Positions 42,985-61,542 of a stretch of DNA of 64,000 bases are shown here, piece after piece (positions within the stretch are counted from its first letter, which is position 1; every line of letters starts with the position of its first letter). The notes under the pieces were generated by a model that had not been told where the DNA came from, ran no database searches, and saw only the letters and a program-made list of their open reading frames with translations. The DNA comes from Candidatus Moraniibacteriota bacterium (GTDB taxonomy: Bacteria; Patescibacteriota; Minisyncoccia; Moranbacterales; UBA1568). The position numbers and the translations under genes are program-made. The DNA lies in NCBI GenBank assembly GCA_030648835.1, contig JAUSGT010000002.1:309458-373457 (forward strand), written 5' to 3'.

Positions 42985-43075
42985 GGAGAGGTGGCTGAGC
43001 GGCTGAAAGCGGCAGGTTGCTAACCTGTTATAGGACCTTAAAATCCTATCGAGGGTTCGAATCCCTCCCTCTCCG
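42985..43075 (+). tRNA. tRNA-Ser (anticodon GCU), long variable arm; left boundary of island
   Basis: ggagagg/cctctcc acceptor, anticodon stem cagg/cctg with loop ttgctaa, long extra arm. Confidence 0.75.
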
Positions 43076-43123
43076 CATCAAGCATTTAGTATCGAGAGAG
43101 ACCCGAGAGCCTCGAGTTAATGT

Positions 43124-43834: not shown

Positions 43835-43848
43835 AAATATTGATAAGT

Positions 43849-44823: not shown

Positions 44824-44897
44824 ATCTGGTCCGAGAGCCTCGAAATGAGCAATAAAAAAAACAGCAGTTTTTACCGCTGTTTTTTTATTGTTTAATT

Positions 44898-46247
44898 TTA
44901 TGACAAAGCAGTTTCATATTTCCTGAGGATTAATTTTTTCTCTTTTGTCAGAATGAGTCGACTTTTGAGACTAGCGAGCAATTCCCGCTTTTCAATCATC
45001 TTTCCCTCTTTGAGAATATATTTAGCATACGTGCGTATATCAAAGGCCTCTTTCTTATCGACATCACTTTCTTTGCCATCCATTCTAAGAACCGTATGTT
45101 GGAACTTGTTGTAGCGATCGACCTCTTCTTCAAATTGTTTCTTCAGTCCGATTTCATTGATATCAATCTCATCGATAACATGGAGCATTTGTAAGATGAG
45201 TGCCTCTTCCCGCAAATAACCAAGCTTGCAAGTAAGATCTCTTGAGCGAGTGCATCCGTAGTAGATATACTTTGTTGTGCTGCCGTTTTTCAGTTTCTTG
45301 TATTTTTCATCAGCCGTAATGCCTGATCCGCAGAGTTCGCAGGTGAGGAGTTTGGTGAAGGCGAACTCTTTGCTGTCCCGTGTTATGCGATCGCGCTTCA
45401 GTTGCTCTTGGGTAAGTTCGAAAAGCTCTTTAGTAATAATGGGTTCGTGCTTGCCTTCATACCATTTACCACTCCCTCTTGGAAATTCAAAGGGGCCAGA
45501 GTAGAAAGATGTCTGGAGTATGCGATAAATGTTCCCGAGTGAAAGATTTTTGTTACCTTTAGACTTGAAGTTGATATCAAATTTGAGCCAGTGATAAACT
45601 TTCCGCCCGCTCCAGCGTTCGTAAGCCACTCTTTCAAACATTTTTCTGATGACTGGTCCGCGCTCAGGATCAACAATGACTTGGCCTCTACGATCAGGCG
45701 AGGTGACATTGAGATACCCGGTTGGCGCGCACGTTGGCCACATGCCCATCTCACAGCGCATACGGAGACCACGCTTCACATTCACGCCTCGATTATCATT
45801 TTCCAGTTTCGCTTGTGAGCCGAGAATCATCAGAAGAAACTTCTCATTGGGAGAATTTGTGAAAGATTGTCCGAAGGTACGAATTTCTTTGAGCTGTTTG
45901 GAATCCATCAGATCCACCAGTGATCCGAGGTCACCAGCATTTCTGCTCAATCGATCCGGCGCCCAGGTAAGGATGCCATTGAATCGATCTTTCCTGATGT
46001 CCTCAATGAGTTCGTTGTATACTGGCCGTTGTCCTGAGTTTTTGGCTGAATGGCTTTCCCTTCGAATCTCTATAATCTCTAGTCCATCTCGCTCAGCGAT
46101 CTGGAGCATTTCCTTTACTTGAGAATCTATGGAAAGCACCTGTCTTTCCTCTGATTCACTGCTCTTTCGAGCGTAGAGGCAGTACCTCGTTTTTAGTGGT
46201 ATTTCTGCCTCTACAGCTATTCGATTGGCCGGACTGTGTATATTCAT
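44898..46247 (-). CDS. Large serine recombinase
   Basis: YARKSS catalytic Ser region, recombinase domain, Cys4 zinc ribbon (CELCGS...YYGCTRSRD), C-terminal coiled coil. Confidence 0.85.
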   Translation of the reverse strand: MNIHSPANRIAVEAEIPLKTRYCLYARKSSESEERQVLSIDSQVKEMLQIAERDGLEIIEIRRESHSAKNSGQRPVYNELIEDIRKDRFNGILTWAPDRLSRNAGDLGSLVDLMDSKQLKEIRTFGQSFTNSPNEKFLLMILGSQAKLENDNRGVNVKRGLRMRCEMGMWPTCAPTGYLNVTSPDRRGQVIVDPERGPVIRKMFERVAYERWSGRKVYHWLKFDINFKSKGNKNLSLGNIYRILQTSFYSGPFEFPRGSGKWYEGKHEPIITKELFELTQEQLKRDRITRDSKEFAFTKLLTCELCGSGITADEKYKKLKNGSTTKYIYYGCTRSRDLTCKLGYLREEALILQMLHVIDEIDINEIGLKKQFEEEVDRYNKFQHTVLRMDGKESDVDKKEAFDIRTYAKYILKEGKMIEKRELLASLKSRLILTKEKKLILRKYETALS

Positions 46248-46363
46248 AGGTTTGTTCTTTACCCAATGAATGACGCAGACCGATGAACTAGTCCAGACCC
46301 CTCAAAAAGCCCTCAAACTGCCTATAATTTCACATTTTTGACAGAATGGAAGTGCACAAACAA

Positions 46364-47830
46364 TCATATAATCCATATCCTTGGTATGATCGGCGGATCT
46401 TCCATAGTGCTTAAAACGACGTTTGAAAACGCATCAGCAAGATCATCGTGAGCCTCAACACCGAAATGCACGATCTGATTAATTAACTCCTCGCATCCTT
46501 CTCGTGGAAAGAGTATTTTTCCGCTCTTGACTGCATAGGCTGTCAGTATGAGTCGCGTGCGCTTATCTTGATTTCCTGGTCTCGTTGTTTTGACCTTTCT
46601 GATACCCTCGCTTTGCAACTGTTGCGGTAGAGACCTCTGATACGCAACATCTTCAATAACAAATATAGGATGTTTGTCATTCTCTTTAAAGTAGGAACTA
46701 TCTATTGCTTTGCACATGTCCACTGTTTCTGGGAAATCCATCTTCCTATTTACTATTTGTGGCAAGATATATACCCTCAAATCTTTCCCGTCGCCATACA
46801 GCATTGCCGGTACCATGGCCGTATAATCCGCTGTGTCCTTTTTTGAGATCGCCAGGTCAACCCCGATACGCACTTCAACGTGTTTGTCATACCCTTGGCA
46901 ATCCTTTTCGCCATGCGGTAACTCATCATAAAATTGGATCCATTCTCGGTGAATAGCTTGTTCTTCATCGGCAACGATGTGAAGCATATATTCTCGCTCC
47001 CAAGCAAATTCGTTTCCCGCTTTTCTTTTTTCACTTTCAATATCTTCCATAGAAAGATATTTTCCAGGCCATAAAATCTCCTGACCTCTTATGATGGGGA
47101 ATTCTTTGAATACGCCATCGATTCTTTCTTTTTCTACATCTTCCTTGATTCGCATAAGAAGCGAATCTTCGTGAAGCAGATTCCCAACGATAACCAGTCT
47201 CGTATTGCGATCTCCTGTAGGAATAACTTCTGCGGTCAGCCACTGATATGTCTTATTTCTTCCTTCGCGAGTCTTGGTAGAAGCCATGTCTTCCACATCG
47301 TCACAGATAATAAGGTCTGGTCGATGTTGATTGTGCCGCAAACCACGGATACTTTGTTCGCGAGAAGCAGCTGTAATTCGGGCATTGAGTTGAGAAAATA
47401 CAAGAGACGATGAACCCCATTCATCGGACTCCTCACGAAATGGCCCAAGATCATTCTTGAGAGTCGCGTTATTCTCTAGCTCTTGCCGGAGGTTCATCAT
47501 ATGTTGCTTCGCCTGTGATTGAGTCTGGCAAAGGATGAGCGCAAATTTTTTCTGTTGTCTGCCAAGAATCGCCCAGATTGGGTAGGAGGTGGTAAGTATC
47601 GTAGATTTTCCGCTGCCTCGGAAAGCGACAACGAAGAAATTACCAGCATTTTCGTTTTCCGAAAGATCAAACATCTCTGCTTGGAACTGAGCGGTCGGGT
47701 ATTTAACGTAATGGGCGAAGTAAAAATGGAAAAAGTGCCAGTGGCTTTCTTTAATGATTGCCACTCTGACTTTTCGATCCCTGATCATCGCCTCCGCTAA
47801 CCCCGGGGTTATTGTCCTTCTGTTGTTCAT
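46364..47830 (-). CDS. Phage terminase large subunit
   Basis: Walker A AFRGSGKST, Walker B ICDDVED, C-terminal RNaseH-like nuclease (IGVDLAISKKDTADYT). Confidence 0.8.
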   Translation of the reverse strand: MNNRRTITPGLAEAMIRDRKVRVAIIKESHWHFFHFYFAHYVKYPTAQFQAEMFDLSENENAGNFFVVAFRGSGKSTILTTSYPIWAILGRQQKKFALILCQTQSQAKQHMMNLRQELENNATLKNDLGPFREESDEWGSSSLVFSQLNARITAASREQSIRGLRHNQHRPDLIICDDVEDMASTKTREGRNKTYQWLTAEVIPTGDRNTRLVIVGNLLHEDSLLMRIKEDVEKERIDGVFKEFPIIRGQEILWPGKYLSMEDIESEKRKAGNEFAWEREYMLHIVADEEQAIHREWIQFYDELPHGEKDCQGYDKHVEVRIGVDLAISKKDTADYTAMVPAMLYGDGKDLRVYILPQIVNRKMDFPETVDMCKAIDSSYFKENDKHPIFVIEDVAYQRSLPQQLQSEGIRKVKTTRPGNQDKRTRLILTAYAVKSGKILFPREGCEELINQIVHFGVEAHDDLADAFSNVVLSTMEDPPIIPRIWII

Positions 47831-48221
47831 AAGATTGTGTCGTTATTTGATTTACTGAAGATAATCGCAGTGCTTCGCGAACGATCTCTTCCTGCTCTGG
47901 AGTAAGCACATCCTGAGACTGAATGTTGGCCGTTACTTCTACGCGCTCACGGAATTTCTGATGTCGGTGCCGGAGCCAGAAGCTGATCGCTTGATAACTC
48001 TTATCTCTGATAAGCGAAATGAGCTGAGATTCAGACATGTCGTTGATAAGCGCCTCGCCTTCGCTCAAAGCTTCTTCGAGTGATTGGCGAAACTTCTCGT
48101 CCTCATCTCGCCAGCGGTAGACGGAAGAACGCGCGACACCGACCTTTTCGCACGCCACCTGGATAATGGGAATCTTGCGGAGTTGCTCGAGAAATAAAAT
48201 CTTGGCTCGATCCTTTTTCAT
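47751..48221 (-). CDS. Terminase small subunit-like HTH protein
   Basis: N-terminal HTH VGVARSSVYRWRDE; immediately upstream of and overlapping terL. Confidence 0.5.
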   Translation of the reverse strand: MKKDRAKILFLEQLRKIPIIQVACEKVGVARSSVYRWRDEDEKFRQSLEEALSEGEALINDMSESQLISLIRDKSYQAISFWLRHRHQKFRERVEVTANIQSQDVLTPEQEEIVREALRLSSVNQITTQSYEQQKDNNPGVSGGDDQGSKSQSGNH

Positions 48222-49549
48222 AAGATTTTTTTCGGCTTTAATCCGGTTAATTTCGACCAGCGATTCAGAATCACCTCAGCGTAGATGGGGCTTTTTTCCA
48301 TCAGAAAACACTTGCGCTGCATTTTCACCGCTGCAATCAAAGTCGAACCGCTTCCACCATAGGGCTCAAAGATGAGATCGCCTCGCTTGGTCAGTATCTT
48401 GATGTAGGGAATAAGTATTTCCAGAGGTTTCGTGCCGAAAATAATTCCCTGTCCGGAAGATTTTTCATCGGCAGCGATATGCTCAATAAAATCAGTTGGG
48501 CAATACTTCTTGCCTTTGCCATAAGATTCCCAGTGGGGACTGCCCGAGGTTGCGAAAAGCGCCGTTTCGTATTCGGTTTGAAGCAATGCATCCGATTCTG
48601 GTTCAACGTTCAGCTCAACCTTGCCCGAAGTGCCGACCATTGCGAAGTCATGCTTATTGAAGAATTTATATTTGGCGCTAAATCCTTGAACGCGATTGGG
48701 GATATGCCAAATAATTGTATTTCTGTATTTCCAATGTTTTTCTAACTCATTCCAGATAGTCCGAAGATTTTTTGGATTCTCATAGACGATGATCGAAAAG
48801 TCTGGCTCCTGAATCTTGGCGACATTGTTCATCCAGAGTTCGGTAAAGTTGTCCGGGAGTGTTTCAGTGCCTAGATACACTCGATCGCGTTTTAACCCGA
48901 AGCCTTTGGTTACATTGCCGTTTTTCTTTTTCTTACCCTTGAGGTAATCCAGAAGATACGGAGGGTCCGTGAAGCACATATGCGCCTTATGTCCGTCAAA
49001 AAGTGTTAGAACATTTGCTTCAATTGTGGAATCCCCAATCATTACTCTGCTACCGTTTAGGTCGTATACTTCGCCGCTCTTTACTTTGATTTTTGTTATG
49101 TCTAACTTCGCCAGTTCTTTCTCTAAATCAAATACTTCTGGCGTTTCATCAATTCCAAAAATTTCGTCCATTTCTTCGCTCGAGAACCCAACGCTCCCGA
49201 GGAACTGTTCGCTGAAGTTGGAAAGAATATCCCAATCGAACTCGCCGGTGTTTTTATTCAGGCGAATATTCAGTTCCTTTTCTTTTTCCAAATCAGGAAT
49301 AGAAATGTATACCACTGGTACCTCTTTGATGCCGAGCTTCTTGGCCATAGCCAGGCGGAAGTGGCCACCGATGAGAATGTTCATTCGTTCCGATGCCGAA
49401 TTTACTACGAACGGGTCGACCAACCCGAATCGTTTGATACTTTCCTGAAGCTGGGTTTCTGCCTCCTTGCTCCATTTGCGCGGATTATATTCTGACGCCT
49501 TGAGGAGCGTGACGTCGACGTACTGCACCTGCAATTTTTCTTTTGGCAT
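48218..49549 (-). CDS. ParB-like nuclease domain fused to N4/N6 DNA methyltransferase (phage-type orphan MTase)
   Basis: N-terminal ParB/Srx motif (YNPRKWS...GGHFRL), MTase motif IV TDPPY and motif I FEPYGGSGST. Confidence 0.8.
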   Translation of the reverse strand: MPKEKLQVQYVDVTLLKASEYNPRKWSKEAETQLQESIKRFGLVDPFVVNSASERMNILIGGHFRLAMAKKLGIKEVPVVYISIPDLEKEKELNIRLNKNTGEFDWDILSNFSEQFLGSVGFSSEEMDEIFGIDETPEVFDLEKELAKLDITKIKVKSGEVYDLNGSRVMIGDSTIEANVLTLFDGHKAHMCFTDPPYLLDYLKGKKKKNGNVTKGFGLKRDRVYLGTETLPDNFTELWMNNVAKIQEPDFSIIVYENPKNLRTIWNELEKHWKYRNTIIWHIPNRVQGFSAKYKFFNKHDFAMVGTSGKVELNVEPESDALLQTEYETALFATSGSPHWESYGKGKKYCPTDFIEHIAADEKSSGQGIIFGTKPLEILIPYIKILTKRGDLIFEPYGGSGSTLIAAVKMQRKCFLMEKSPIYAEVILNRWSKLTGLKPKKIL

Positions 49550-49708
49550 AATGTTTGCCTTAATGTTTATCAGGCACTCCTGCCTGTCAGGCTATATGCT
49601 GAAATTTCAGCCACTAAGAAACCTTTGCTTTATATGAAGCAATAAAATATTTTGCATAAAGAAAAAAGCCCGCTGTAATTTCAGTGGGCTACTAATAATC
49701 AGATTGGG

Positions 49709-50686
49709 TTAGTATGAATCTTCGTTTGGCTGAGGGTCTTCTTTGAATCCTTTCTTTTTCCGGGTAATAAACGTTTCCCCGCTACCCCTTAGACCAACGG
49801 GTGGTATAAGGATAAATCTAGAATGATAGTATCCATATTCTGAATAATTGAAAAACGGTTCTTCGTCTATACCGAATACCTGCCTCAGATGCTTTGATAG
49901 TATACTCTTAGTCGCATGAAGAGCATCCTTTTGTTTGAAATGTTCGTTACCAAGTAAATTATTTACCGTTGGTTGCTCACCTTTCCCCAGCTTAAAAGCC
50001 GAGAGTAAAAGGAGGAGAGTCCAGGCTTTGTTCGGAGTTTTATCTTTAGTGTTTGTTTTTACAAACCGAAGAACTTCTCGATCGAAACGACCGATAAATT
50101 TTTTCCCACATCGGATTTCTACCTCAATGTCGCTGGTAAATGCGAAGGTGATGTCTTCCCATCGGGTACCTGATGGCAATGTTACTATGGCTGTTCCTGA
50201 AAGGAGTTTTTGTGCTCTCTCCTTTGCTCGTTCCTCGACTTTCTCAAGAACTCTATTGGTTATAGTCTCAACGAGATCATCCTGGTGTAGGACTACTTCT
50301 CGCGTCTGTGGTCTTATCGGTCGAGTGGCGATAACTTCCGTTGGGATGTTGGGGACAAAGCGATTCCAAGAATCAACTATCTGACTGACGGATAGTACGA
50401 TCCGCTCCCGTTCTTTTTGAGCCCTTTGGATTTGTTCCTGCAGGTTGCCAAAGACTTCAAATGCATGTCTGTAGGTTTCGACAGCATAGTTCATCTGTTT
50501 TGCTAGGTTTTGCAAAGCCCCCGCTTGTTGCTGGAAGAACTGGTGGAGCAGAACCCGTTGTCTGAGAAACGGCTCTATATTGAAGGCAATCTCTTTTTGG
50601 ATGGCTAAAACATTAAACATAGGCACTAAGGCCATTTGTTGTGTGCTTTTTCCTTTTGGATTGGACGCTTTACTTTTGACTTTCAT
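49709..50686 (-). CDS. Hypothetical protein
   Basis: 325-aa ORF divergent from defence operon. Confidence 0.4.
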   Translation of the reverse strand: MKVKSKASNPKGKSTQQMALVPMFNVLAIQKEIAFNIEPFLRQRVLLHQFFQQQAGALQNLAKQMNYAVETYRHAFEVFGNLQEQIQRAQKERERIVLSVSQIVDSWNRFVPNIPTEVIATRPIRPQTREVVLHQDDLVETITNRVLEKVEERAKERAQKLLSGTAIVTLPSGTRWEDITFAFTSDIEVEIRCGKKFIGRFDREVLRFVKTNTKDKTPNKAWTLLLLLSAFKLGKGEQPTVNNLLGNEHFKQKDALHATKSILSKHLRQVFGIDEEPFFNYSEYGYYHSRFILIPPVGLRGSGETFITRKKKGFKEDPQPNEDSY

Positions 50687-50715: not shown

Positions 50716-50916
50716 ATGAAGAATCAAACGAAGAAAATCGAGGAATACCCGGAGATTTTGACGCTCCAGGAAGCTTGTGAGGTTTTGAATTGCCACCCAA
50801 ATACGCTTCGGAATTGGGATAACAAAGGCATCCTCAAGGCAATTCGGTTTGGCACGAGGAAGGACAGAAGGTACAAAAAGGAGGATGTGTTGAAAGTTAT
50901 CAATAAAGGCCACTAA
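50716..50916 (+). CDS. Excisionase/MerR-family HTH DNA-binding protein (possible controller or Xis)
   Basis: 66 aa; LTLQEACEVLNCHPNTLRNWDNKGIL HTH; 3 nt upstream of the SNF2 gene. Confidence 0.6.
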   Translation: MKNQTKKIEEYPEILTLQEACEVLNCHPNTLRNWDNKGILKAIRFGTRKDRRYKKEDVLKVINKGH

Positions 50917-50919
50917 AGT

Positions 50920-53862
50920 ATGGCGAAAATTACTTCCTATCATGCAAAATATTTTGCCCACGAGCTAACTAAGCGGTGTTCTTCGGATAGCTTAGAAAAA
51001 CTATCCTCAACACTTTCTAACGCTCAAGTTGATCTGAACCCTCATCAGATTGAGGCGGCACTTTTTGCATTTAAATCGCCGCTTTCTAAGGGAGCAATTC
51101 TGGCTGACGAAGTTGGTTTAGGGAAAACAATTGAAGCCGGCTTGGTGCTGTCTCAAAAATGGGCGGAACGAAAAAGAAAGATTTTATTAATAGTGCCGTC
51201 TAGTCTTAGAAAGCAGTGGAACTCAGAACTTCGAGAAAAGTTTTTTTTGCCATCAATAATTTTAGAAGCAAAATCTTTTAATCAAACTGTCAAAGAAGGT
51301 AATCTCAACCCTTTTAATCAGGATAACGCAATTATCATTTGTTCTTATCACTTCGCTAGAGCCAAATCATCCTATATCAAACAAACCCCTTTTGATTTAG
51401 TGGTTATTGATGAAGCACATCGTCTGCGTAATGTTTATAAAACGAGTAGTAAAATTGCCCGAGAAATAAAAGATGCCATTCAAGAATATCCTAAGCTACT
51501 TCTCACTGCCACTCCTTTGCAAAATTCTTTACTCGAGCTATACGGATTAACCAGTATTATTGACGACCATATTTTTGGGGATCTCAGTAGTTTTAAGGCG
51601 AATTATGCCAAAGTTTCACGAGAGCAGGATATTTACGAAAACGAGCTTGGTTTAGTTGAGCCGAGACAAGAAATGTTTGCTGATTTGCGTAATAGACTAA
51701 AGCCAATTTGTATTCGTACACTGCGTCGCCAGGTTTTGGAATATATTAATTATCGCGATCGCAAACCAATCACTCAGGACTATGTACCGACTGAGCAAGA
51801 AATTGAACTTTATGATGGGATGACTGAGTATCTTCAACGCCCACGTCTTTATGCTTTGCCGTTTAGCCAGCGTCAGCTTATGACGCTTATTTTACGCAAA
51901 CTTTTAGCCTCGTCATCATTTGCTATTGCCAGTACGCTCAATGGATTGGTCTATAAGTTAGAAAAATTGGAAGAAGAAATAAGAAAAAAATCAGCGGTGT
52001 TAGACGAAACACTTCCTTTAGGGATTGAAGAAAATTATGAGGCTTTTGAAACTACAGCTGATGAATGGATTGACGATGAGGAAGAAGAGATTGATGACAA
52101 GATAAAAGAAAAGAAAAAGTATACACTCGAAGATATTCCTTTGATTCAATCAGAAAAAACAGACCTAGAAAAATTTAGAGACTTAGCAAGAGCCATTTTC
52201 AAAAATTCCAAAGGAGAATCCTTGCTCATTGCTTTAGAAAAAGGTTTCGAAATGACTGCAACGCTTGGTGCTCAGAAAAAAGCAGTTATTTTTACAGAAT
52301 CAAGAATCACTCAGGATTATCTCTGGAAACTACTTTCGGATAGTGGTTACAAAGACAAAATGCTCTTATTCAATGGTTCTAATAATGATCAAAAGTCAAA
52401 AGATATTTATGCTGAATGGTTGAAGAAAAATAAAGACACTGACAACATAACAGACTCGAAGACCGCAGACCTTCGTGCCGCACTGGTGGACTACTTCAAG
52501 TCGGATGCCGAGATTATGATTGCTACTGAAGCGGCTGCTGAAGGCATCAACCTACAATTCTGTTCACTTGTTATCAACTATGATCTCCCATGGAATCCTC
52601 AAAGAATTGAGCAGAGAATTGGCCGTTGTCATCGTTATGGACAAAAACATGATGTAGTTGTGGTCAACTTTGTAAATCGAAAAAACGCTGCTGATCAGCG
52701 CGTTTATGAACTGCTTGATCAAAAGTTCAAACTTTTCAAAGGCGTTTTTGGGGTAAGCGATGAAGTGCTTGGTAGTATTGAGTCAGGGGTTGATTTTGAA
52801 AAACGTATTGCAGCTATTTACCAATCCTGTCGCACCGAGGAGGAAATCAACAATGCTTTTGACACCTTACAGACAGAAATGGACGATTCGATTCAGGAAG
52901 GCATGCGCGGAGCGAAAGAAAAACTTCTGGAAAATTTTGACGCGGATGTACATGAAAAACTCAAGATAAATTTGCGTGAGAGCAAGGGATATTTAGAAAC
53001 TTATGAAAAGTGGCTCTGGGATATCTCTCAGTACTTTCTAGGTGACAAAGCGGTTTATGCTGAAGATGAATATTCTTTTACACTTAAACGCAATCCATTT
53101 CCTGATGAAGATATTGATGAAGGTCCTTATAAAATTGGTAAAAATATTGATGATGCTCACATTTACCGTCCAGGACATCCTCTGGCTGAGAGAATTTTGC
53201 GTGAGGTAAAAGCACAGTCGTTATCAAGCGCTGAAATAGTTTTTGATTATTCCAATCACGGAAATATTATTTCTCCAATTAAAGAGTTGGTTGGTACTAG
53301 CGGTATTTTACAAGTATCAGAATTGACTATTGACTCGTTTGAAACCGAAGACAATATTCTGGTGACAGCAATAAAAAACAATAGCGAAGTAATTGAAGAA
53401 GATGTCGCAAAAAAACTTTTCTTACTCAGTGCTGAGGTGAAGGGAGATACTATCAAAACAGTAAGCGAAGAGGTTCAACAAAGAGAGCAGGAAAAGGTAA
53501 ATATTCTTACTGCAAGCATTGCCGGACGTAACAGCGAATTTTTTGATGATGAGGTAGACAAGCTTGATAAGTGGGCTGAAGATGTGAAAAAGAGTATGGA
53601 AATAGAACTCAAGCGTATGGATATTGATATTAAAACAATGAAAACGAACGCCAAAAAAGTCTTGAATTTAGGAGAAAAGGTAAAACTTCAACGAGAAATA
53701 AAGGATTTAGAAAAGAAACGAAACGATATGCGTCAGAAACTTTATAAGGCACAAGACGAAGTAGATGTGAAGAAAGAGAATTTACTGGAGAAAGTAGAAG
53801 CACAGCTGAAACAAAAAATGACGCTTGCACCATTATTTACAATACGATTTAAGGTGATATAA
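50920..53862 (+). CDS. SNF2-family helicase/ATPase with about 380-aa C-terminal coiled-coil extension
   Basis: Motif I DEVGLGKTIEAG, II DEAHRLRN, III LLLTATPLQNSLLELY, VI NPQRIEQRIGRCHRYGQ. Confidence 0.85.
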   Translation: MAKITSYHAKYFAHELTKRCSSDSLEKLSSTLSNAQVDLNPHQIEAALFAFKSPLSKGAILADEVGLGKTIEAGLVLSQKWAERKRKILLIVPSSLRKQWNSELREKFFLPSIILEAKSFNQTVKEGNLNPFNQDNAIIICSYHFARAKSSYIKQTPFDLVVIDEAHRLRNVYKTSSKIAREIKDAIQEYPKLLLTATPLQNSLLELYGLTSIIDDHIFGDLSSFKANYAKVSREQDIYENELGLVEPRQEMFADLRNRLKPICIRTLRRQVLEYINYRDRKPITQDYVPTEQEIELYDGMTEYLQRPRLYALPFSQRQLMTLILRKLLASSSFAIASTLNGLVYKLEKLEEEIRKKSAVLDETLPLGIEENYEAFETTADEWIDDEEEEIDDKIKEKKKYTLEDIPLIQSEKTDLEKFRDLARAIFKNSKGESLLIALEKGFEMTATLGAQKKAVIFTESRITQDYLWKLLSDSGYKDKMLLFNGSNNDQKSKDIYAEWLKKNKDTDNITDSKTADLRAALVDYFKSDAEIMIATEAAAEGINLQFCSLVINYDLPWNPQRIEQRIGRCHRYGQKHDVVVVNFVNRKNAADQRVYELLDQKFKLFKGVFGVSDEVLGSIESGVDFEKRIAAIYQSCRTEEEINNAFDTLQTEMDDSIQEGMRGAKEKLLENFDADVHEKLKINLRESKGYLETYEKWLWDISQYFLGDKAVYAEDEYSFTLKRNPFPDEDIDEGPYKIGKNIDDAHIYRPGHPLAERILREVKAQSLSSAEIVFDYSNHGNIISPIKELVGTSGILQVSELTIDSFETEDNILVTAIKNNSEVIEEDVAKKLFLLSAEVKGDTIKTVSEEVQQREQEKVNILTASIAGRNSEFFDDEVDKLDKWAEDVKKSMEIELKRMDIDIKTMKTNAKKVLNLGEKVKLQREIKDLEKKRNDMRQKLYKAQDEVDVKKENLLEKVEAQLKQKMTLAPLFTIRFKVI

Positions 53863-53866
53863 AAAT

Positions 53867-55570
53867 ATGAGCAATAACAAACAAAAACTAGAGCTCACGT
53901 GGATCGGGAAAAATAACCCCGAGTATGATATCTCCAACATTGAACCGCGCATCTTGGAAGAGCGGACTGATTTGTCATATGGTGATAAGGAGAGTGAGAA
54001 CATGATCATCCATGGTGACAACCTCCTCGCACTCAAGGCGCTTCTACCTGAATATGAGGGCAAAATAAAATGTATCTATATTGACCCACCATACAATACA
54101 GGTAATGCCTTTGAACATTACGACGATAGCGTGGAACACTCAACATGGCTCTCACTAATGAAGCCGCGGTTGGAACTTTTAAGAATGCTATTGAGTGAAG
54201 ATGGTGTTATTTTTATTCAAATAGACAATTCGGAGCAAGCGTATTTGAAAGTTCTATTAGACGAGGTTTTCCAAAGAAACAACTTTATTACGTCGTTTAT
54301 TCTTAAAGTTAGACATTCGGAACGAATGCTAAAAGGAGATAAAGATATTCATGATGTTGCTGAATACGTGCACTGTTATCAAAAATCAAATCAATTTAAA
54401 ATCTCAAAGAGAAAACAGGTAGTCGCAGATGATCCATACGAAGATTATCAGTGGGCAGTAAAAACAATTGGAACTGGAAAAACACTTGTATTGGGAAATA
54501 AAGAGTGCCGTGTTTTTAAGCCCGGTGAATATGAATTAACACGTTTAGACGGAAATAAAAGCGGGTTCAAAAAGATCAACATTCGTGGCGGACTAAGAGA
54601 AGGAAATAGTAGTGGTAGATTTTATGTTGCTCATATTGAACAAAGACTTCAGAATGATGGTTATAACGTTTTATACGAGGTACCTAATATTGGTGATGAT
54701 GGGACAGGACGCAGATATTTTCTTTTACCAGAAAATATGAAAAAGAAAAATGGTAATTATTTTCAGGGAGTACCACAAACACGAACTTCATCAAAAGATC
54801 TTCCATACCCATCTTTCTTCGATGTCTCTGCAGCTTTTAACCGTGTCGGCTACGAAGGAGTTGTCGAATTTCGAAATTCTAAAAAGCCGGAATCACTCAT
54901 TAAGACTTTTTTTGAAATAGCAAATTTGTCTAGCAACGATTGGATTTTAGATTCATTTCTTGGTTCTGGTACCACGGCTGCAGTAGCCCACAAAATGAAT
55001 TTTAATTATATCGGCATAGAAATGGGCAACCATGCTTATTCTCATGTCCATAAACGAATGAAAGCCGTTATTGATGGCGAGGATCATAGTGGAATCAGCG
55101 AAGCTGTGAACTGGCACGGAGGAGGAGGATTTAAATTTTATGAGCTTGCACCGAGTTTTATTGTGAAAGACGAATTTGGGAATCCTGTGATTGATAGTTT
55201 TTATAATGACGCTAAACTTATTAAAGCCATGTGTAAGCTGATGAACTTTACATATCAGCCAAGTCAAACAGAATATTGGAAGCACGGCGTGGGTCAAGGA
55301 AAGAACTATCTTTATGTTACTACTCAGCTTTTGACAAGCGGGATGATTCAGCAGATTGCAGGACATCTTACTGAGGGTGAGTCTTTGATAGTTTGTCCGA
55401 AGAAGTTTGAACCTGGTGCGGATAAAATTGATAGCCGTATTACTATTAAAAAAATACCGCAGTCGGTTCTGAAAGCTTGTCACTTTGGCAAAAAGGAATA
55501 TCTACTTCCAATCAAGGAATCCGCTCTGGAAGAGATAGAGGATGAATCACTAGAAGATGATAACGAATAA
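53867..55570 (+). CDS. N6-adenine DNA methyltransferase, beta-class (type III Mod-like)
   Basis: Motif IV IYIDPPYNTGN precedes motif I DSFLGSGTTAAVA; EHSTWLSLMKPRLELL region typical of Mod; 4 nt after SNF2 stop. Confidence 0.85.
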   Translation: MSNNKQKLELTWIGKNNPEYDISNIEPRILEERTDLSYGDKESENMIIHGDNLLALKALLPEYEGKIKCIYIDPPYNTGNAFEHYDDSVEHSTWLSLMKPRLELLRMLLSEDGVIFIQIDNSEQAYLKVLLDEVFQRNNFITSFILKVRHSERMLKGDKDIHDVAEYVHCYQKSNQFKISKRKQVVADDPYEDYQWAVKTIGTGKTLVLGNKECRVFKPGEYELTRLDGNKSGFKKINIRGGLREGNSSGRFYVAHIEQRLQNDGYNVLYEVPNIGDDGTGRRYFLLPENMKKKNGNYFQGVPQTRTSSKDLPYPSFFDVSAAFNRVGYEGVVEFRNSKKPESLIKTFFEIANLSSNDWILDSFLGSGTTAAVAHKMNFNYIGIEMGNHAYSHVHKRMKAVIDGEDHSGISEAVNWHGGGGFKFYELAPSFIVKDEFGNPVIDSFYNDAKLIKAMCKLMNFTYQPSQTEYWKHGVGQGKNYLYVTTQLLTSGMIQQIAGHLTEGESLIVCPKKFEPGADKIDSRITIKKIPQSVLKACHFGKKEYLLPIKESALEEIEDESLEDDNE

Positions 55571-55575
55571 ATACT

Positions 55576-58401
55576 ATGAGACCTGAGGAAGCGCTCAAAT
55601 ACCTCAATGGCGCGATGAGTTTGCACGCTCCGCAAGTAAAGAGTCTGGAGCTTTTTGCTCATTATTTGCAGTCACCAGCTGGGCAAAAATTGTTGTTACG
55701 CATGAAAAAAGAAGTGCGTGGCAATACAGCTGAGATATTAGCAGAAAGCAAAGCATACTTCAGTACTGTTCCCGAAGCACGCGAGTTTGAGGAATATGAA
55801 AGAGCGTTCCCGGCTTACACCTTTGCACTCGCTACCGGCGTAGGCAAAACCAGGTTGATGGGTGCTTTCGTAGCATATTTGTATTTGGTATATAATATTC
55901 AGCACTTTTTGATTGTTGCACCAAACCTGACTATTTATCGCAAGCTCTATGATGATTTTAGTAAGGCAAATAATCCTAAGTATGTTTTTAAGGGTATTCA
56001 AGAAGTAAATACAAATACGGTAAAAGTCATTACCACAGAAAATTACGCTAACTATAGACAGCAATCACTCTTTCTTAATCAGATTGAAATCAATATTTTT
56101 AATATCCAACAGTTCGCACAGAGGGATATGACCAGTGAGCGCGGTATTACGAAAGCGTGGGAAACCGCTGGGGAGTCCTATTTTGACTATTTAAAAGCGC
56201 ATGATGATTTAGTGGTGATGTTAGATGAAGCCCACCACTACCATGCGGATGCGGCCCTTGGCGCACTCGATTTGATGGATCCTCTATTTGGACTAGAAAT
56301 GACTGCTACACCATACCTTGGGACTCAAGGTACGGGCAGAAATGCAAGACAAATCAGAATGAAAAATGTTTTGTATTCCTATAACCTTGGTGATGCTATC
56401 CGAGGCAAGCTTGTCAAAGATCCATGGATAGGCACTGAAGCAGATGTGGATTTCAGTCAATTTGATCCTGACTCTATTGATACTGACGCGCGCAAATTGC
56501 AACTGGCGGCTTTTTTTCACGAACGTGCTAAAAATGCACTGAAGGAGTATGCGTTGGAAAATAATAAGCCGATTGTAAAACCGGTTATGTTGGTGGTAGC
56601 AAAAGACACAACACACGCAGGAGAGTTACGCGCTTTGATTGATAGCGATAATTTTCGTGGTGGAGAATTTAAGGGAAAGGTTATTGAGATACACACTAAA
56701 CTTCGTGGAGATGAGGCAGATGAAAATATTGATAAATTAATTTCACTTGAACACCCCGATAATCCAGTGGAGATTGTGATTCACGTCAATATGCTCAAGG
56801 AAGGTTGGGATGTGACAAATGTGTATACCATTGCGCCTTTGCGTGAGGCAGCTGCCGCGATTTTGACCGAGCAGACAATCGGGCGTGGTTTACGCTTACC
56901 TTACGGAGAACGCACCGGCATACCTTTGGTAGACAGACTGGTGCTCGTTGCTCACGAACAGTTTGCTAAAGTTGTGGCACTTGCTAAAGACTCACCACTT
57001 ATTCAAGGACAGGTTGAACAAATTTCAGAGAGAGAAGCTAAAGAAGTTAAAGTGTTCACCGAAGTTCAGTCCGTTGCTCTTGATGCCGTTAAAGATGCAA
57101 TAACGCAAAATGAAGTGGTGATGCAAGAGGTTGAAAAACAAGTTGAAGAAGAGATTGCTAAAATGCCGCAAGCAGATTTAATGGATGAATCAGTAAAAGG
57201 AAAAATGAAAGAAACCAAGACAGATGAAAAAGTAACTGGCTTATCAAAAATTGTATGTGGAATTAATACATTTTCTAGTTATCACGGGCAAAAACTGAGT
57301 GTTTCACCAGAGCTGTCCTTTGGAACTGATACATTGTTTGGATTTTTCAGTGATGAAGCAAAAGGTGAGCTCTCAAGGATTGCAAAAAAATCTGGAGAGG
57401 CAATGGAAGAAAGAAATATACCAATTCCGCGTTTGATGCTTACCCCGCACTTTGGTGAACTTTTGATAGAACAATTTGATTTGGATACGAGTGTATTACG
57501 TACATATACTAATGAGCGAGCTATTCTTGAAGAACAATTACAAAATGATCGTGAGAAAAATTTATTTGATGAAGAAGTTCCAGGACGTCGAATGACTGAA
57601 GTAACAAGAATAAGCAGTTTTGGTGCGCATACGAGACAGACTCCACAAAGCACTATAATTGCTTCGCTTCTTGATTTTCCGTTGGTTGATTATGATGATC
57701 CTTCGCAAAAACCATTGCTTCTGAGATTAGCAGAGCAAGCTGTCATACATTATCGAGAAAAGGCGATTGATGAAGATAATCTTGCCCTGATTGTTGAAAG
57801 TAACGCGCGTACAATTGCCGAAGATATTTATCAGCAGATTTTGACACATAAAGAATTGAAGTCTGAGGGATATCTTGAGTCCGATGTGCGTGAACCGAAA
57901 CCATATTTGGAACAGTATAATATTTCCTTGTTGTTTGGAGAAAAACCTGTTTCTCTTGAATCACAGCTAAATACTTTTAGTGCCAAACTTGTCTATGGAC
58001 AGTTTCAAAAGGCCTGCCACTCAATGTATCGTTTTGATTCTTCAGATGAAGTACGTCTAGCGTATTTATTAGATCGTGAAGATTCAGTTGAAGATTGGTT
58101 ACGCCCAGCCCCTAATCAATTTGAGGGCTTGTATTGGCGTGATATAGAAGGAGAGTCTCATCATCGCTACGAACCAGATTTTGTTGTTGAATTTGAAAAT
58201 GAGATAGTAATGATAGAAGTGAAGCCGGAATTAGAAATCCAAGCTCTAAGCGTACAGGCAAAAAAACAAACCGCAGAAAAATACTGTGAGGTAGTGAATA
58301 AAAATATTGGAAAGTTTGGTATCATAAAGCCATGGCGGTATGTGATTGTTCCCACAGAAAAAATAACAATAAGTTCTACGATAGATGGATTGTTGAGTTG
58401 A
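55576..58401 (+). CDS. Type III restriction Res-like subunit: DEAH helicase + C-terminal PD-(D/E)xK nuclease
   Basis: Walker A ATGVGKT, motif II VVMLDEAHHY, III EMTATPY, VI QTIGRGLRLPYG; C-terminal EPDFVVEFENEIVMIEVKPE. Confidence 0.8.
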   Translation: MRPEEALKYLNGAMSLHAPQVKSLELFAHYLQSPAGQKLLLRMKKEVRGNTAEILAESKAYFSTVPEAREFEEYERAFPAYTFALATGVGKTRLMGAFVAYLYLVYNIQHFLIVAPNLTIYRKLYDDFSKANNPKYVFKGIQEVNTNTVKVITTENYANYRQQSLFLNQIEINIFNIQQFAQRDMTSERGITKAWETAGESYFDYLKAHDDLVVMLDEAHHYHADAALGALDLMDPLFGLEMTATPYLGTQGTGRNARQIRMKNVLYSYNLGDAIRGKLVKDPWIGTEADVDFSQFDPDSIDTDARKLQLAAFFHERAKNALKEYALENNKPIVKPVMLVVAKDTTHAGELRALIDSDNFRGGEFKGKVIEIHTKLRGDEADENIDKLISLEHPDNPVEIVIHVNMLKEGWDVTNVYTIAPLREAAAAILTEQTIGRGLRLPYGERTGIPLVDRLVLVAHEQFAKVVALAKDSPLIQGQVEQISEREAKEVKVFTEVQSVALDAVKDAITQNEVVMQEVEKQVEEEIAKMPQADLMDESVKGKMKETKTDEKVTGLSKIVCGINTFSSYHGQKLSVSPELSFGTDTLFGFFSDEAKGELSRIAKKSGEAMEERNIPIPRLMLTPHFGELLIEQFDLDTSVLRTYTNERAILEEQLQNDREKNLFDEEVPGRRMTEVTRISSFGAHTRQTPQSTIIASLLDFPLVDYDDPSQKPLLLRLAEQAVIHYREKAIDEDNLALIVESNARTIAEDIYQQILTHKELKSEGYLESDVREPKPYLEQYNISLLFGEKPVSLESQLNTFSAKLVYGQFQKACHSMYRFDSSDEVRLAYLLDREDSVEDWLRPAPNQFEGLYWRDIEGESHHRYEPDFVVEFENEIVMIEVKPELEIQALSVQAKKQTAEKYCEVVNKNIGKFGIIKPWRYVIVPTEKITISSTIDGLLS

Positions 58402-58467: not shown

Positions 58468-58830
58468 ATGGAAATTGATGATAAAAAAATTGGACAAATA
58501 CTTGGAAATTTAGAATCTGCGATTGGAAAAATTATTAGAATAGATATGTGGTTGCCTGAAGCTATAGATTATGCTATAAATGGCCATCGTGGAACTTTGG
58601 ATCGAGCGGATATTGATAGAGCGACCAGGGAGAAAAAGGAGGATAATAAAATTCAAATAGAAATTGACAGTTTGCGTAGTCAAGTTGAAGAATCACAAAA
58701 ACAAACCCAAGAAATAAAGAAGCAGACGCGCTACTTATTGTATGCATTCATTATCGCTATTTTTAGTTTTTCATTAAATGCCATTTTGCAAATAAGCCCG
58801 AATCTGTTTGGCCTACTAAATACAAAATAA
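58468..58830 (+). CDS. Hypothetical coiled-coil protein with C-terminal TM helix
   Basis: 120-aa ORF in AT-rich defence block. Confidence 0.35.
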   Translation: MEIDDKKIGQILGNLESAIGKIIRIDMWLPEAIDYAINGHRGTLDRADIDRATREKKEDNKIQIEIDSLRSQVEESQKQTQEIKKQTRYLLYAFIIAIFSFSLNAILQISPNLFGLLNTK

Positions 58831-58913
58831 AGAAGATGCCAACTTGTTTATAAACTCTACGATCTCACCCCAGAAGAAATTGAAATTATAGAAAATTCAA
58901 GTAAGAAATAATC

Positions 58914-59516
58914 ATGCTTTCACTTGATCAAAAAGAGATAGAAGCCAAGCTGGATACATTTAATTGGAATTTTAAAGTTGGGGATAATATAAAACACAAC
59001 ATTGAAGAAGTGTTTTTCTTGTACAAAATAAAAGAAGAAAATTGTTCATATACTAGGGAAAAACAATTTATAAATAAACATATATCAATAACCCTAGTTG
59101 CTATTATTGAAGGAATTTTACACGACTTTGTTGTAAGACTAAGCGAAGCCACAAACCACTTTCCGTTAATCATTGATGATAAGAAAAAGAAGGATATCAA
59201 AAAATATATTTCAGAGCAAAAAGTACCTTTTAAGTATAAAAAACTTGAGGGTAGAATACTCAGAGTCAAAAACTATTCATTCGCTCAGATTCTCAAGTTG
59301 CTTCAAAACTTCGAGCTGTTAGAGTCAAAAAATAGCCCAATCTACAATACGTTAGAGGCCGCCACTCATTTTAGAAATCGCATCCATATTTATAATTGGT
59401 TTAATAACTTTGAGACCGACGAGAGGGATGTTTTTACGGATAAACGGTTAGAAGTTCTCGAGTGGTTAGTTATTTACATCTTAACTACAATGGAGGCCAA
59501 GTACTCACGGCCTTGA
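58914..59516 (+). CDS. Hypothetical protein with HEPN-like R-N-x-I-H motif (paralog of 59766-60389)
   Basis: TLEAATHFRNRIHIYNW aligns with EIAEEIRIARNKIHVSG of the next protein. Confidence 0.4.
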   Translation: MLSLDQKEIEAKLDTFNWNFKVGDNIKHNIEEVFFLYKIKEENCSYTREKQFINKHISITLVAIIEGILHDFVVRLSEATNHFPLIIDDKKKKDIKKYISEQKVPFKYKKLEGRILRVKNYSFAQILKLLQNFELLESKNSPIYNTLEAATHFRNRIHIYNWFNNFETDERDVFTDKRLEVLEWLVIYILTTMEAKYSRP

Positions 59517-59765
59517 GAAGAGGGTTGTGAGGGAGTATCTGTTCAAAGAAGGTTTGTGGATTATGAATTTGGACTAGCAACCTAGTGGAATGGCGTATTT
59601 TTTGCTACAATAAAAACATGTCAAAACAGATTAGAAAAAAGAGAGAAGATACTAAGATTGGGACCATAGAAAAAAAATATGATCGTGATTTTGGTGTGCG
59701 ATCAGATAAGAAACTAGGAAACTATCTTAAGGAACAAGGGTTTCCATCGTTAAGTAAGCTTCTCG

Positions 59766-60389
59766 ATGAAACAAAGCGAGGAAAAAAGTGATGAGGTTAT
59801 TGATGAGTTGATGCCAAAAGAAACCTTTGAGAAAAGGTTCTCTTTTATTACAAACGATACTCTAAAAAAGAATATCGCGATTGCTTTTGAATATATTGTT
59901 TTTCTAATTGATACTGCAGGAAAGGAAAATCATAAGCAATTGATTAGAAGTTCTCTTTATAAGGATGCGACCGTTTATACAGGGACTATTGTTGAGGCCT
60001 GTCTTTGTCATGTACTTATGAAATATTTCTCAGTAAACAAATTACAAAAAACAAAAGTTTTGACTCCAGAATGGAAAGAAGAAGCACAAGGGTTTATACA
60101 CGAGTTTAGTAAAAAAAAGAGGATCCGTTATGTTATTGAGCATATAAGCTACGAAGATATTAGAGATTCATCAAACTTTATCGAAATAAATCGTGCTTGT
60201 CTTCGTGGCAGGATACTTTCTAAAAAAGAATACGAAATTGCAGAAGAAATAAGAATAGCTAGGAATAAAATTCACGTATCTGGATTAAAGGAAATAGATA
60301 ATTCATACAGCAAAGAGAAGCTTGATGAAATCTTTTCTAAAGCAAATAAAATTATTAGAAAAGTAGAAAAGAAACTTTTGAAGCTTTAG
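59766..60389 (+). CDS. Hypothetical protein with HEPN-like Rx6H motif (RIARNKIH)
   Basis: Motif as above; possibly fused by frameshift to upstream 68-aa ORF 59585-59791. Confidence 0.4.
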   Translation: MKQSEEKSDEVIDELMPKETFEKRFSFITNDTLKKNIAIAFEYIVFLIDTAGKENHKQLIRSSLYKDATVYTGTIVEACLCHVLMKYFSVNKLQKTKVLTPEWKEEAQGFIHEFSKKKRIRYVIEHISYEDIRDSSNFIEINRACLRGRILSKKEYEIAEEIRIARNKIHVSGLKEIDNSYSKEKLDEIFSKANKIIRKVEKKLLKL

Positions 60390-60673
60390 GGGGTTTTTTT
60401 TCAGAGAGTAAAAAAATAGTCAGGTACCATTTTGGTAGGAATTTTCTCAGCCCTGGTTCGTTTTTAGTGGCTTGATTTATTCTTCAAAAAGAGTAGGATA
60501 CAAGCACAACTGAATAGTGAATTATCTAGAGAGTGGCGAGAGCACTGGCTCACTGACCCACCGGCAACCCTTGGCAACAAGAAGGTGCCCCATCCAGCCC
60601 TGGAAAGGGAAAGATATCGGTCGATTCTTTCTCTGTCTCTGGACAGAGTTTTTGATTTTCTAACGATAATACT

Positions 60674-61099
60674 ATGAAAAATATCTACTATAAAGCAAAA
60701 GAAGAAGATGAGACTCCTCTCCATATGTCTGGATTTGTTCCGTTCCGTTTGGAACTTAAAAATTTCCCAAAATATGACAATTTTCCATACAATATTTTGT
60801 TCGCAGGAGATGCCAACATAGACGGAGTGGACATGTCCGGCAGTGCTCTGTATTTTCCCGATTTTTCAACGTTTCAGGAAAGTGAGAAAAAACAGTCTAT
60901 GACTTATTTTAACCAATATAGTCGCGAATGGACGGTGGTGATTGAGTATGACAAGCAAAGGGGTTCGTGGGAAGGATCAAAATATTACAAAGGTGAATTC
61001 AAAGGCGGTGGCGGTGGTACAGAGTGGAGAATGGCTTTTGCACATCTGACTATGGCTGGATTGGCGAATGGTGAAAGGGTGGAATTTGAAAAGATTTGA
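60674..61099 (+). CDS. Hypothetical protein
   Basis: 141-aa ORF; stop overlaps next start (atga). Confidence 0.35.
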   Translation: MKNIYYKAKEEDETPLHMSGFVPFRLELKNFPKYDNFPYNILFAGDANIDGVDMSGSALYFPDFSTFQESEKKQSMTYFNQYSREWTVVIEYDKQRGSWEGSKYYKGEFKGGGGGTEWRMAFAHLTMAGLANGERVEFEKI

Positions 61100-61542
61100 A
61101 AAGTTTTTTTAACGCTAAAATCATGAAAAATATGGACAACAATCAAAACAGGGAATCGCTTTCCCAGGTTAAGGTAAAAGAAGTAGCTTCGCGCTACATT
61201 AGCGGATGTGATAAGTGGTATAGAATGTATGCTGGCATTGCTTCGAATCTAGAAAGATATGAAAGCGGTATTATGTATCTGCGGATAGAAAATACCGAGA
61301 AAACAAAACCTTCAAGCTATGAAACGGCCGTTGAGTTCGCTCGCAAATGGGTGGGATACAATGCAGAATTAAAAGACGCGAAAGGGTTCGTTGTTTCGTT
61401 CTATACCAGCGGGGCGACTGGTTTTGTATTGAATGGTGCCACTGATAAAGGTATTGCTAGCGATTTGGTTCAGCAATTCATAAGGGCTTCGCAGCAAGAA
61501 AAAAAACTAGTGAATATTTTTTCTGGAGAGTTGAAAGTTTGA
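61096..61542 (+). CDS. Hypothetical protein
   Basis: 148-aa ORF translationally coupled to previous. Confidence 0.35.
   Translation: MKSFFNAKIMKNMDNNQNRESLSQVKVKEVASRYISGCDKWYRMYAGIASNLERYESGIMYLRIENTEKTKPSSYETAVEFARKWVGYNAELKDAKGFVVSFYTSGATGFVLNGATDKGIASDLVQQFIRASQQEKKLVNIFSGELKV

Follow-up and report, generated by a model that had tools for sequence, protein, structure and literature searches.

The res gene of a type III restriction-modification (R-M) system in a metagenome-assembled genome of Candidatus Moranbacteria (Patescibacteria, or candidate phyla radiation, CPR) is followed by a 3-kb stretch with six small open reading frames (ORFs), all on the + strand and herein called A, B, X, C, D and E (Table 1). 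The question raised by this locus is whether these ORFs constitute a single set of accessory effectors of the defence island, as was proposed in a preliminary description of the same DNA, or separate units that have come to lie side by side. For this purpose a stretch of 64,000 nucleotides, hereafter referred to as the window, was analysed from the 635,596-bp contig carrying the locus. We favour, with somewhat better than even confidence, the reading that four independent units, shuffled by horizontal transfer, make up the 3-kb stretch, i.e., A, B, the pair X-C, and D/E under a riboswitch, and that this patchwork borders a defence or mobile island. A, B and C were never found together in the other loci, and the comparison of D with E by hhalign gave a probability of only 0.1%, indicating two unrelated families; the units are therefore considered to be independent. 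The most interesting feature of the region, which was overlooked in the preliminary description, is an S-adenosylmethionine (SAM)-responsive riboswitch of the SAM-I (S-box) class, situated upstream of D.

The ORFs themselves are real and lie where the preliminary description had placed them. The proteins A, B, X, C, D and E are identical to MDO8566108 and MDO8566110-113, and the A-E set carries the locus tags Q7S04_02925 to 02950 (B being Q7S04_02930), annotated throughout as 'hypothetical protein'. For none of the six was anything found above threshold in Pfam, NCBIfam, PHROGs or PADLOC. The AT-richness noted for these ORFs is marked in A (GC content 0.331), B (0.327), X (0.345) and C (0.309), with D and E both at 0.40, in comparison with 0.402 for Res and 0.452 for the window. 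The proposed translational coupling of the 120-, 141- and 148-aa ORFs (A, D and E) does not agree with the spacing, X and C being the only overlapping pair: the 83-nt gap between A and B holds the relic of another R-M gene, the 284-nt gap between C and D holds the riboswitch and its terminator, and a gap of 23 nt separates D from E when E starts at ATG 61123, the two overlapping only if the TTG at 61096 is taken as the start. Relatives of B, C, D or E were absent from the viral contigs of IMG/VR, and a phage origin of these four was rejected for this reason.

The riboswitch aptamer was identified by a match to Rfam RF00162 that extends over the full model (positions 1-108) and, at 53.8 bits, exceeds the gathering score of 44.4 (E 1.4e-9 in the window and 7.4e-12 in the local search), and it is 90% identical to the element of a homologous locus, L020. 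Downstream of the aptamer, the terminator scan detected an intrinsic terminator (60631-60648, followed by a T-run), with which an antiterminator hairpin (about 60606-60634) competes (-13.5 versus -9.4 kcal/mol). In this antiterminator the 3' strand of the P1 helix, GGGAAAGAUA, pairs with the 5' arm of the terminator, UUCUUUCUC, so that the terminator and the P1 3' strand stand in the mutually exclusive relation expected of SAM-I elements. A hairpin with a T-run was recognised in seven of the eight riboswitch loci for which the downstream sequence was inspected, the exception being L008, in which the D ORF begins at the 3' end of the aptamer and the terminator is missing. Eight expression platforms, including those of L023 and L026, were folded. 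The platform agrees with the classical S-box OFF-switch design, and SAM-dependent termination is predicted from it. When SAM is abundant, the P1 helix and the terminator would form and transcription would stop before D; when SAM is scarce, the antiterminator would form, and D and E should be made only under this condition. Immediately upstream of the aptamer (60475-60518) we noticed a weak promoter-like sequence, TTGATT-16-TAGGAT, and a short block, ACAACTGAATAGTGAATTATC, both of which are kept at the corresponding site in L020 and L021, suggesting that the riboswitch unit has its own transcription start.

The riboswitch is linked to D and E well beyond the window. The D family comprises 208 representative proteins at E<1e-3, of about 130-150 aa, and its genome loci are from Portnoy-, Kuenen- and Uhrbacteria and other Patescibacteria; since the sequences of the large D alignment diverged too strongly to serve in scanning loci, a subset of 10 was used. 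The D homologue is preceded by a same-strand riboswitch in five of six genome loci and 20 of 28 metagenome loci, one of the elements being of the SAM-I/IV type. Once six negatives with less than 300 nt of upstream sequence are set aside, 25 of the 28 informative D loci are positive (about 20 non-redundant), the three loci without the riboswitch (L012, L034 and L046) standing against the linkage. The E family is smaller, with 25 homologues and with source names only for its Patescibacteria/Moranbacteria members. In L020 the riboswitch, terminator and leader are followed directly by E, without D, and in L021 a 97-aa Cys-rich ORF stands between the riboswitch and E. These two make up the tally for E (two of two distinct loci), L022 being a second, unscanned assembly of L021; the distant E homologue of L051, with no more than 837 nt of upstream sequence, does not enter the count. 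The upstream position of RF00162 is thus conserved before orthologous D and E genes, and its co-occurrence with them across loci indicates that the aptamer is not a chance match.

A 38-nt leader, together with the protein start ATGAAAAAT, is present twice (60656-60693 and 61105-61142, 76% identity; repeat family D3), and positions 4975-5011 of L020 align to both copies. The similarity to L020 falls into two parts, 60494-60693 being 90% identical to L020 4812-5011 and 61106-61554 being 87% identical to L020 4975-5431, and it follows that, relative to L020, D is flanked by a leader copy on either side. In L023 this leader stands before D alone. From the order of the genes, D and E are best described as interchangeable cassettes behind one SAM-responsive leader, with D alone in L023, E alone in L020 and both in the window. 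The duplicated leader and the L020 orthologue also point to ATG 61123 as the start of E (NCBI gives 61132), the TTG at 61096 used in the preliminary description being unlikely, and E is accordingly a 139-aa protein.

Several further observations were made on the D family. Longer homologues of about 220-330 aa (L010/L039/L040, L012, L013, L030-L035, L038, L042, L044, L045 and L049) are of two kinds, with a conserved extension of about 95 aa at the N terminus (...GSKEEKEIYEL...) or with a CpXC/Cys-rich domain, and the 97-aa Cys-rich ORF of L021 may be related to these Cys-rich N-termini. Other members are fused to TPR repeats or to a DSP-type phosphatase. A gene for an HD_4 (RelA/SpoT-type hydrolase-like) protein adjoins the riboswitch and D in L023 (4405-5181) and L027 (641-1219), and P0077, a D-domain protein, has a weak HD_4 match; the neighbourhood of HD_4 may be a functional hint. 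Taken as a whole, the fusions of D (TPR, DSP-phosphatase, CpXC and weak HD_4) gave no clear functional lead. A second structured RNA, LOOT (RF03000, 68-76 bits), also recurs in these variable regions, just downstream of D in L047 (732-861) and L049 (3949-4080), and just downstream of X-C in L006 (8263-8381).

The pair X-C represents a unit of a different kind. Homologues of C amount to 47, and X, reported as a 68-aa ORF in the preliminary description, is in fact a 57-aa gene starting at ATG 59618. A 57-aa gene is called before C in L001, L002, L006 and L007, the ORF is present and uncalled in L004, and a shorter call of 44 aa occupies the same site in L003. Besides the window, the pair was found in three further unrelated genomes (L002/L003, L004/L005 and L006/L007), where its neighbours are ftsZ/hisS/pth, nusA/clpP/rny, or HTH-TPR-trypsin-type genes, and in these three genomes no defence gene was detected near it. 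In L006 the nucleotide similarity is bounded exactly by the ATG of X and the stop codon of C. The two genes overlap by 26 nt, and this overlap is identical in four loci from independent assemblies (52-90% identity), in each of which C has its own ATG, falling within the L-D/N codons of X. From this recurrence as exactly two ORFs with the overlap kept we conclude that X-C is a small mobile two-gene cassette, which would be self-contained and translationally coupled through the overlap. The preliminary description had suggested that a frameshifted or programmed-slippage fusion might be present here. X and C would then be a single gene, interrupted through an error of sequencing or read through by programmed -1/+1 slippage at the A6 run (59780), and the stop codon of X does lie within the overlap, adjoining GGAAAAAAG. 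We regard this explanation as highly improbable, because the two-ORF layout and the ATG of C are kept in all four assemblies, the A-run is replaced by GGAGAAAACG in L002 and by GCGAAATAAATAA in L004, and X by itself makes up a 24-member cluster at 90%, mostly of proteins of 57-63 aa.

A small co-oriented, overlapping pair that is kept across unrelated contexts is what is generally found for type II-like toxin-antitoxin systems. With regard to gene order, the most likely and most economical reading of X-C is a toxin-antitoxin pair, in which C would be the RNase toxin and X, a new and very small partner in place of MNT, its neutraliser or regulator. Against this stands the lack of a recognisable antitoxin fold in X, for which no match was obtained in Pfam, NCBIfam or PADLOC. 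Among the homologues of C, two chimeric proteins were noticed, P0045 and P0046, which combine the N-terminal half of an Mrr_cat restriction nuclease with a part corresponding to residues of about 138-207 of C (84% identical) and have the appearance of scars left by recombination, similar to the R-M relic in front of B.

B, for which 46 homologues were found, has a different history. In L014-L016 the gene order is HTH, PLD-SNF2 helicase, a 1112-aa type IIG (Eco57I/MmeI-like) R-M enzyme and B, and the ATG of B coincides with the stop codon of the R-M gene. The blastn similarity between the window and L014 starts at 58847, within this R-M gene, and the 65 nt at 58847-58911 encode ...YKLYDLTPEEIEIIENSSKK*, matching the last 20 residues of the L014 enzyme. 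This relic indicates that B arrived together with a fragment of a different R-M system, and it also makes the present position beside an R-M system weak evidence of function. The association with R-M supposed in the preliminary description is thus supported by gene order for B, but it points away from the adjacent type III system; for C, which stands elsewhere among housekeeping genes, it fails. The native site of B would be directly behind a type IIG gene in an SNF2 plus R-M operon, from which recombination would have carried it into the window locus along with the final 65 nt or so of that gene. B would then most likely be an R-M-linked, second-line RNA-cleaving effector, probably a metal-independent RNase, or the now stranded remnant of such an effector. 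It should be considered on the other side that two of the four contexts of B contain no R-M neighbour, B being solitary amid housekeeping genes in L017/L018 and in L019, without any conserved partner; dependence on R-M is therefore not obligatory. Upstream of the B homologue in L017 (1-4747), the 23S rRNA gene is interrupted, the bacterial large-subunit model matching at 1-2316 and its remainder at 4227-4747. Insertions in rRNA are known in CPR bacteria, and this interruption is consistent with them.

The preliminary description took B and C for paralogs with a HEPN-like motif. The motif is present in both, as ATHFRNRIHIY in B and IARNKIHV in C, and its R, N and H are invariant in 23 homologues of B and 28 of C. 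Two features of HEPN proteins are a polar residue after the R and a second conserved acidic residue in an earlier helix, of the Ex3[KR] type (PMC3710099), and in both families the N after R fits the first of these, while the invariant helix-2 glutamate would be a candidate for the second. B has the invariant residues R154-N155-R156-x-H158 and E66, and C has R166-N167-x-x-H170 and E77, the two glutamates being colinear and followed by x3-H/C instead of K/R. Paralogy was not visible at the level of sequence: BLASTP gave only an off-register match of 22 aa (E 0.005), and the profile-profile comparison by hhalign gave a probability of 2%, which is no significant similarity. In contrast, the invariant N36, K66, E77 and L80 of C align with N25, K55 and E66 (invariant) and L69 (nearly invariant) of B at a constant offset of 11, and the RNxxH motifs at an offset of 12. 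The AlphaFold2 models from the family alignments are confident (C: pLDDT 82.9, pTM 0.76; B: pLDDT 88.0, pTM 0.85) and share one topology, consisting of two long helices, a beta-hairpin (an insert at 101-129 in C), a short helix, a helix ending in R-N, a loop with the H predicted at low confidence, and a long C-terminal helix. On the basis of this predicted topology and the colinear invariant residues, in which alone the link is visible, we regard B and C as distant relatives of each other.

The models resemble the all-alpha, up-down helical bundle of HEPN proteins. In Foldseek searches of PDB, the only compact high-probability matches of either protein were HEPN proteins, mostly HEPN-MNT toxins and also YutE and HI0074: 7bxo, 6m6u, 7ae6 and 1jog for C (probability up to 0.89), and 7ae8, 7ae6, 7ae2, YutE 1ylm, HepT 6m6w, 5yep and 1jog for B (up to 0.98). 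BFVD added a fold match of C to a 208-aa viral protein, 'MAE-28990/MAE-18760-like HEPN', and weak sub-threshold matches to Pfam HEPN_Swt1 were obtained in 11 of 28 members of the C family, and to HEPN_RiboL-PSP in one of 23 members of the B family (0.0076). Several points weigh against this assignment. The Foldseek matches have E values of about 0.2, none below 1e-3 for B or C; the best HEPN_Swt1 score for C is 17.8 against 27.5 bits (E 0.004), so that no Pfam HEPN model reaches its gathering score; and PDB sequence-profile searches with B and C gave chance-level matches only. Moreover, the distance from R to H is three residues in both families (Rx3H), not the Rx4-6H given in the preliminary description and in the literature (PMC3710099), and the motif is a close variant instead of the canonical one. 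With moderate confidence, we consider both B and C to be HEPN-fold proteins, and we infer that both are probable RNase toxins.

A, the remaining unit, is an orphan tail-anchored coiled-coil protein, with a coiled-coil-like N-terminal region and a hydrophobic C-terminal helix (YLLYAFIIAIFSFSLNAILQI). Pfam gave only sub-threshold coiled-coil or membrane matches, the 90% cluster contains A alone, and tblastn across the fetched loci detected no homologue.

The view of the preliminary description, that the five ORFs together serve the type III R-M island as accessory effectors and that B and C, as paralogous HEPN RNases, are its abortive-infection modules, was weighed against these results. The ORFs are co-oriented, AT-rich, and directly downstream of res, B is R-M-linked elsewhere, and a HEPN fold has support; linkage to R-M is common among HEPN clades, and Swt1-like HEPN proteins have been reported in R-M operons with SNF2 helicase (PMC3710099). 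We nevertheless judge this view to be unlikely and largely refuted by the comparison of contexts, in that C and X live apart from defence genes in three genomes, A is a singleton, the relic upstream of B belongs to a type IIG system, D and E have a riboswitch, a terminator and a cassette history of their own, and no two of the A, B and C families travel together.

The role of D and E is a separate question, and here expression at low SAM tells when the two proteins are made and not what for; that neither has a relative of known function (for D in Pfam, NCBIfam or PDB; for E in Pfam or PDB; PDB sequence-profile searches with both at chance level only) counts against any assignment. The repeated siting of the cassette beside DNA methyltransferase or defence genes suggests a possible cofactor-sensing link to methylation-based immunity. 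Such neighbours were recognised in the window, L020 (GmrSD and PDDEXK), L021/L022 (two Dam-type methyltransferases and DUF4357), L023 (Dam, HNH and N6_N4 methyltransferase), L042 and L049 (N6_N4 methyltransferases and SNF2), and the contigs of P0251 (type I S subunit, ABC-3C genes and zeta toxin) and P0255 (N6_N4 methyltransferase), and the content is swapped in the manner of defence-island cargo. A fall in SAM, by starvation or by a phage SAM lyase, might then switch D and E on through the SAM-responsive OFF switch, either for alleviating restriction of the cell's own under-methylated DNA or as a back-up effector once the SAM-dependent R-M is disarmed. We hold this to be rather unlikely in either form, and the broader proposal, in which the riboswitch and its swappable D/E would read SAM depletion and so provide methylation-based immunity in CPR with a metabolite-sensing arm, to be slightly less likely still. 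CPR genomes are rich in methyltransferases, some of the neighbouring ones (ParB-methyltransferase) belong to the adjacent integrative element, and L027, L032, L038 and L046 have no methyltransferase among the annotated neighbours. D and E have no PADLOC match and no nuclease, methyltransferase-binding or DNA-mimic features, and in the literature searched we found no precedent for such a link, nor any report of SAM riboswitches in CPR/Patescibacteria or of riboswitch-gated defence. The alternative that D and E are ordinary SAM- or methionine-starvation proteins of CPR (salvage, uptake helper or regulatory factor), their place next to islands being merely that of a hot spot of recombination, is a more realistic possibility, if still short of an even chance. 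SAM-I riboswitches of characterised bacteria control genes for methionine/SAM metabolism and transport, and the riboswitch-D unit is usually monocistronic and often beside tRNA genes across Portnoy-, Kuenen-, Uhr- and Moranbacteria; on the other hand, D and E are small, soluble and mutually unrelated, have no similarity to known metabolic or transport families, and the fusion partners of D are not metabolic enzymes. Some SAM-starvation function is taken as the default reading of D and E.

Table 1. Features of the defence/mobile island and of the 3-kb stretch downstream of res (positions in the window)
Feature	Position	Strand	Evidence or remark
tRNA-Ser(GCT)	42985-43076		integrative-element-like module
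Large serine recombinase	44898-46247	-	integrative-element-like module
TerL-like gene	46364-47830	-	integrative-element-like module
HTH_Tnp_1_2 gene	47751-48221	-	integrative-element-like module
ParB_N+N6_N4 DNA methylase	48218-49549	-	integrative-element-like module
HTH_17 gene	50716-50916	+	1.5e-11
SNF2 (DrmD-like) helicase	50920-53862	+	PADLOC DrmD 4.5e-204
Type III Mod	53867-55570	+	PADLOC MTase_III 2.7e-133
Type III Res	55576-58401	+	PADLOC REase_III 8.3e-122
ORF A, 120 aa	58468-58830	+	singleton, coiled-coil-like with C-terminal hydrophobic helix
Relic of type IIG R-M gene (3' end)	58847-58911	+	blastn and translation match to L014
ORF B, 200 aa, predicted solitary HEPN-fold protein	58914-59516	+	family alignment, AlphaFold2, Foldseek
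ORF X, 57 aa, basic, putative antitoxin/regulator	59618-59791	+	conserved partner upstream of C
ORF C, 207 aa, predicted HEPN-fold protein	59766-60389	+	family alignment, AlphaFold2, Foldseek; overlaps X
SAM-I (S-box) riboswitch aptamer	60519-60618	+	Rfam RF00162
Expression platform (antiterminator/terminator)	60606-60657	+	terminator scan and folding
ORF D, 141 aa, uncharacterised family	60674-61099	+	riboswitch-preceded family
Second leader copy and ATGAAAAAT start	61105-61142	+	direct repeat of 60656-60693
ORF E, 139 aa, second uncharacterised family	61123-61542	+	ATG 61123 start

The surroundings of the 3-kb stretch are summarised in Table 1. An integrative-element-like module (42985-50686) adjoins the island, and the recombinase, the TerL-like gene and the ParB-methyltransferase upstream, together with the neighbours, mark the whole area as mobile or defence DNA. 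The same trio of recombinase, TerL and HTH genes as in the window flanks a riboswitch-D cassette in L009 (5212-8402). A direct repeat (43103-43138 and 44831-44866, with a 13-nt exact core CCGAGAGCCTCGA) brackets the two ORFs that separate tRNA-Ser from the recombinase gene, and might represent a duplication of the att type. The repeat search yielded no convincing att-type direct repeats bracketing the island around 58-61.5 kb, giving only the duplicated D/E leader and the 13-nt repeat near tRNA-Ser. Beyond E, the opposite strand carries genes for a Y-family polymerase and an S24 peptidase. Two distinct operons of the type HTH plus SNF2 helicase plus R-M were observed, one in the window (50716-58401; DrmD-like SNF2, type III) and the other in L014 (79-7001; PLD-SNF2, type IIG), and B lies downstream of the SNF2-R-M operon in both. 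This pairing of SNF2 with R-M seems to be a recurring defence architecture of CPR.

The defence repertoire of CPR bacteria is poorly known, and these bacteria lack most biosynthesis. Two unannotated families, 'hypothetical' in every source, can now be assigned, with moderate confidence, to the HEPN superfamily, in which they would form an unusual variant marked by Rx3H and a beta-hairpin insert; one of them, C, has a new 57-aa partner in the apparent place of the usual MNT antitoxin. The list of candidate RNase toxins in CPR is thereby widened. The type IIG relic before B offers a direct view of the assembly of a defence island from recombined fragments. A classical SAM riboswitch is predicted to control two orphan families exchanged behind a conserved leader, and the response of CPR to SAM shortage becomes testable thereby; if the immunity arm were true, it would be the first riboswitch-gated module of defence or restriction alleviation. 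The three elements, a variant of HEPN, a cassette resembling toxin-antitoxin pairs and an S-box riboswitch whose cargo is without precedent, are new forms of kinds already known.

Among the known systems, the HEPN-MNT toxin-antitoxin pairs of the HepT/MntA type (7bxo, 6m6u, 7ae8 and 5yep; DUF86) provide the best compact structural matches of the predicted B and C models. Like these toxins, B and C show a conserved motif of the catalytic R...H type in which N follows R, and C belongs to a mobile two-gene cassette with an overlapping partner. Unlike them, C is paired with the 57-aa basic protein X without nucleotidyltransferase match, B has no conserved partner, and both proteins are about 60 residues longer with the beta-hairpin insert, carry Rx3H instead of Rx4H(xY), and have no DUF86 match at the sequence level. 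The R-M-linked HEPN clades (Abi2/Swt1-like and MAE_18760/28990-like; Anantharaman et al. 2013, PMC3710099) are approached by C in its weak HEPN_Swt1 matches and its MAE-28990-like fold match of similar length, and by B in its position after R-M genes in SNF2 helicase operons. B and C differ from these clades in that no Pfam threshold was passed, B occurs also away from R-M and C always so elsewhere, and neither is fused to an ATPase, a restriction endonuclease or another domain. A functional analogy may be drawn between B and PrrC-EcoprrI, the anticodon nuclease kept latent by a type I R-M system, inasmuch as B would be an RNase-type effector in or near an R-M operon; PrrC, in contrast, has an ABC-ATPase domain and a defined activation mechanism, whereas B is a bare 200-aa domain.

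The riboswitch unit shares with the S-box regulon of Firmicutes (SAM-I, RF00162) the full-length aptamer above the gathering score and the terminator/antiterminator OFF architecture. It differs from this regulon in its cargo: the genes under control are the orphan families D and E and a Cys-rich mini-ORF instead of genes for biosynthesis or transport of methionine, cysteine or SAM, and they replace one another as cassettes after a leader that is itself conserved, in genomes of CPR bacteria and for the most part next to mobile or defence DNA.

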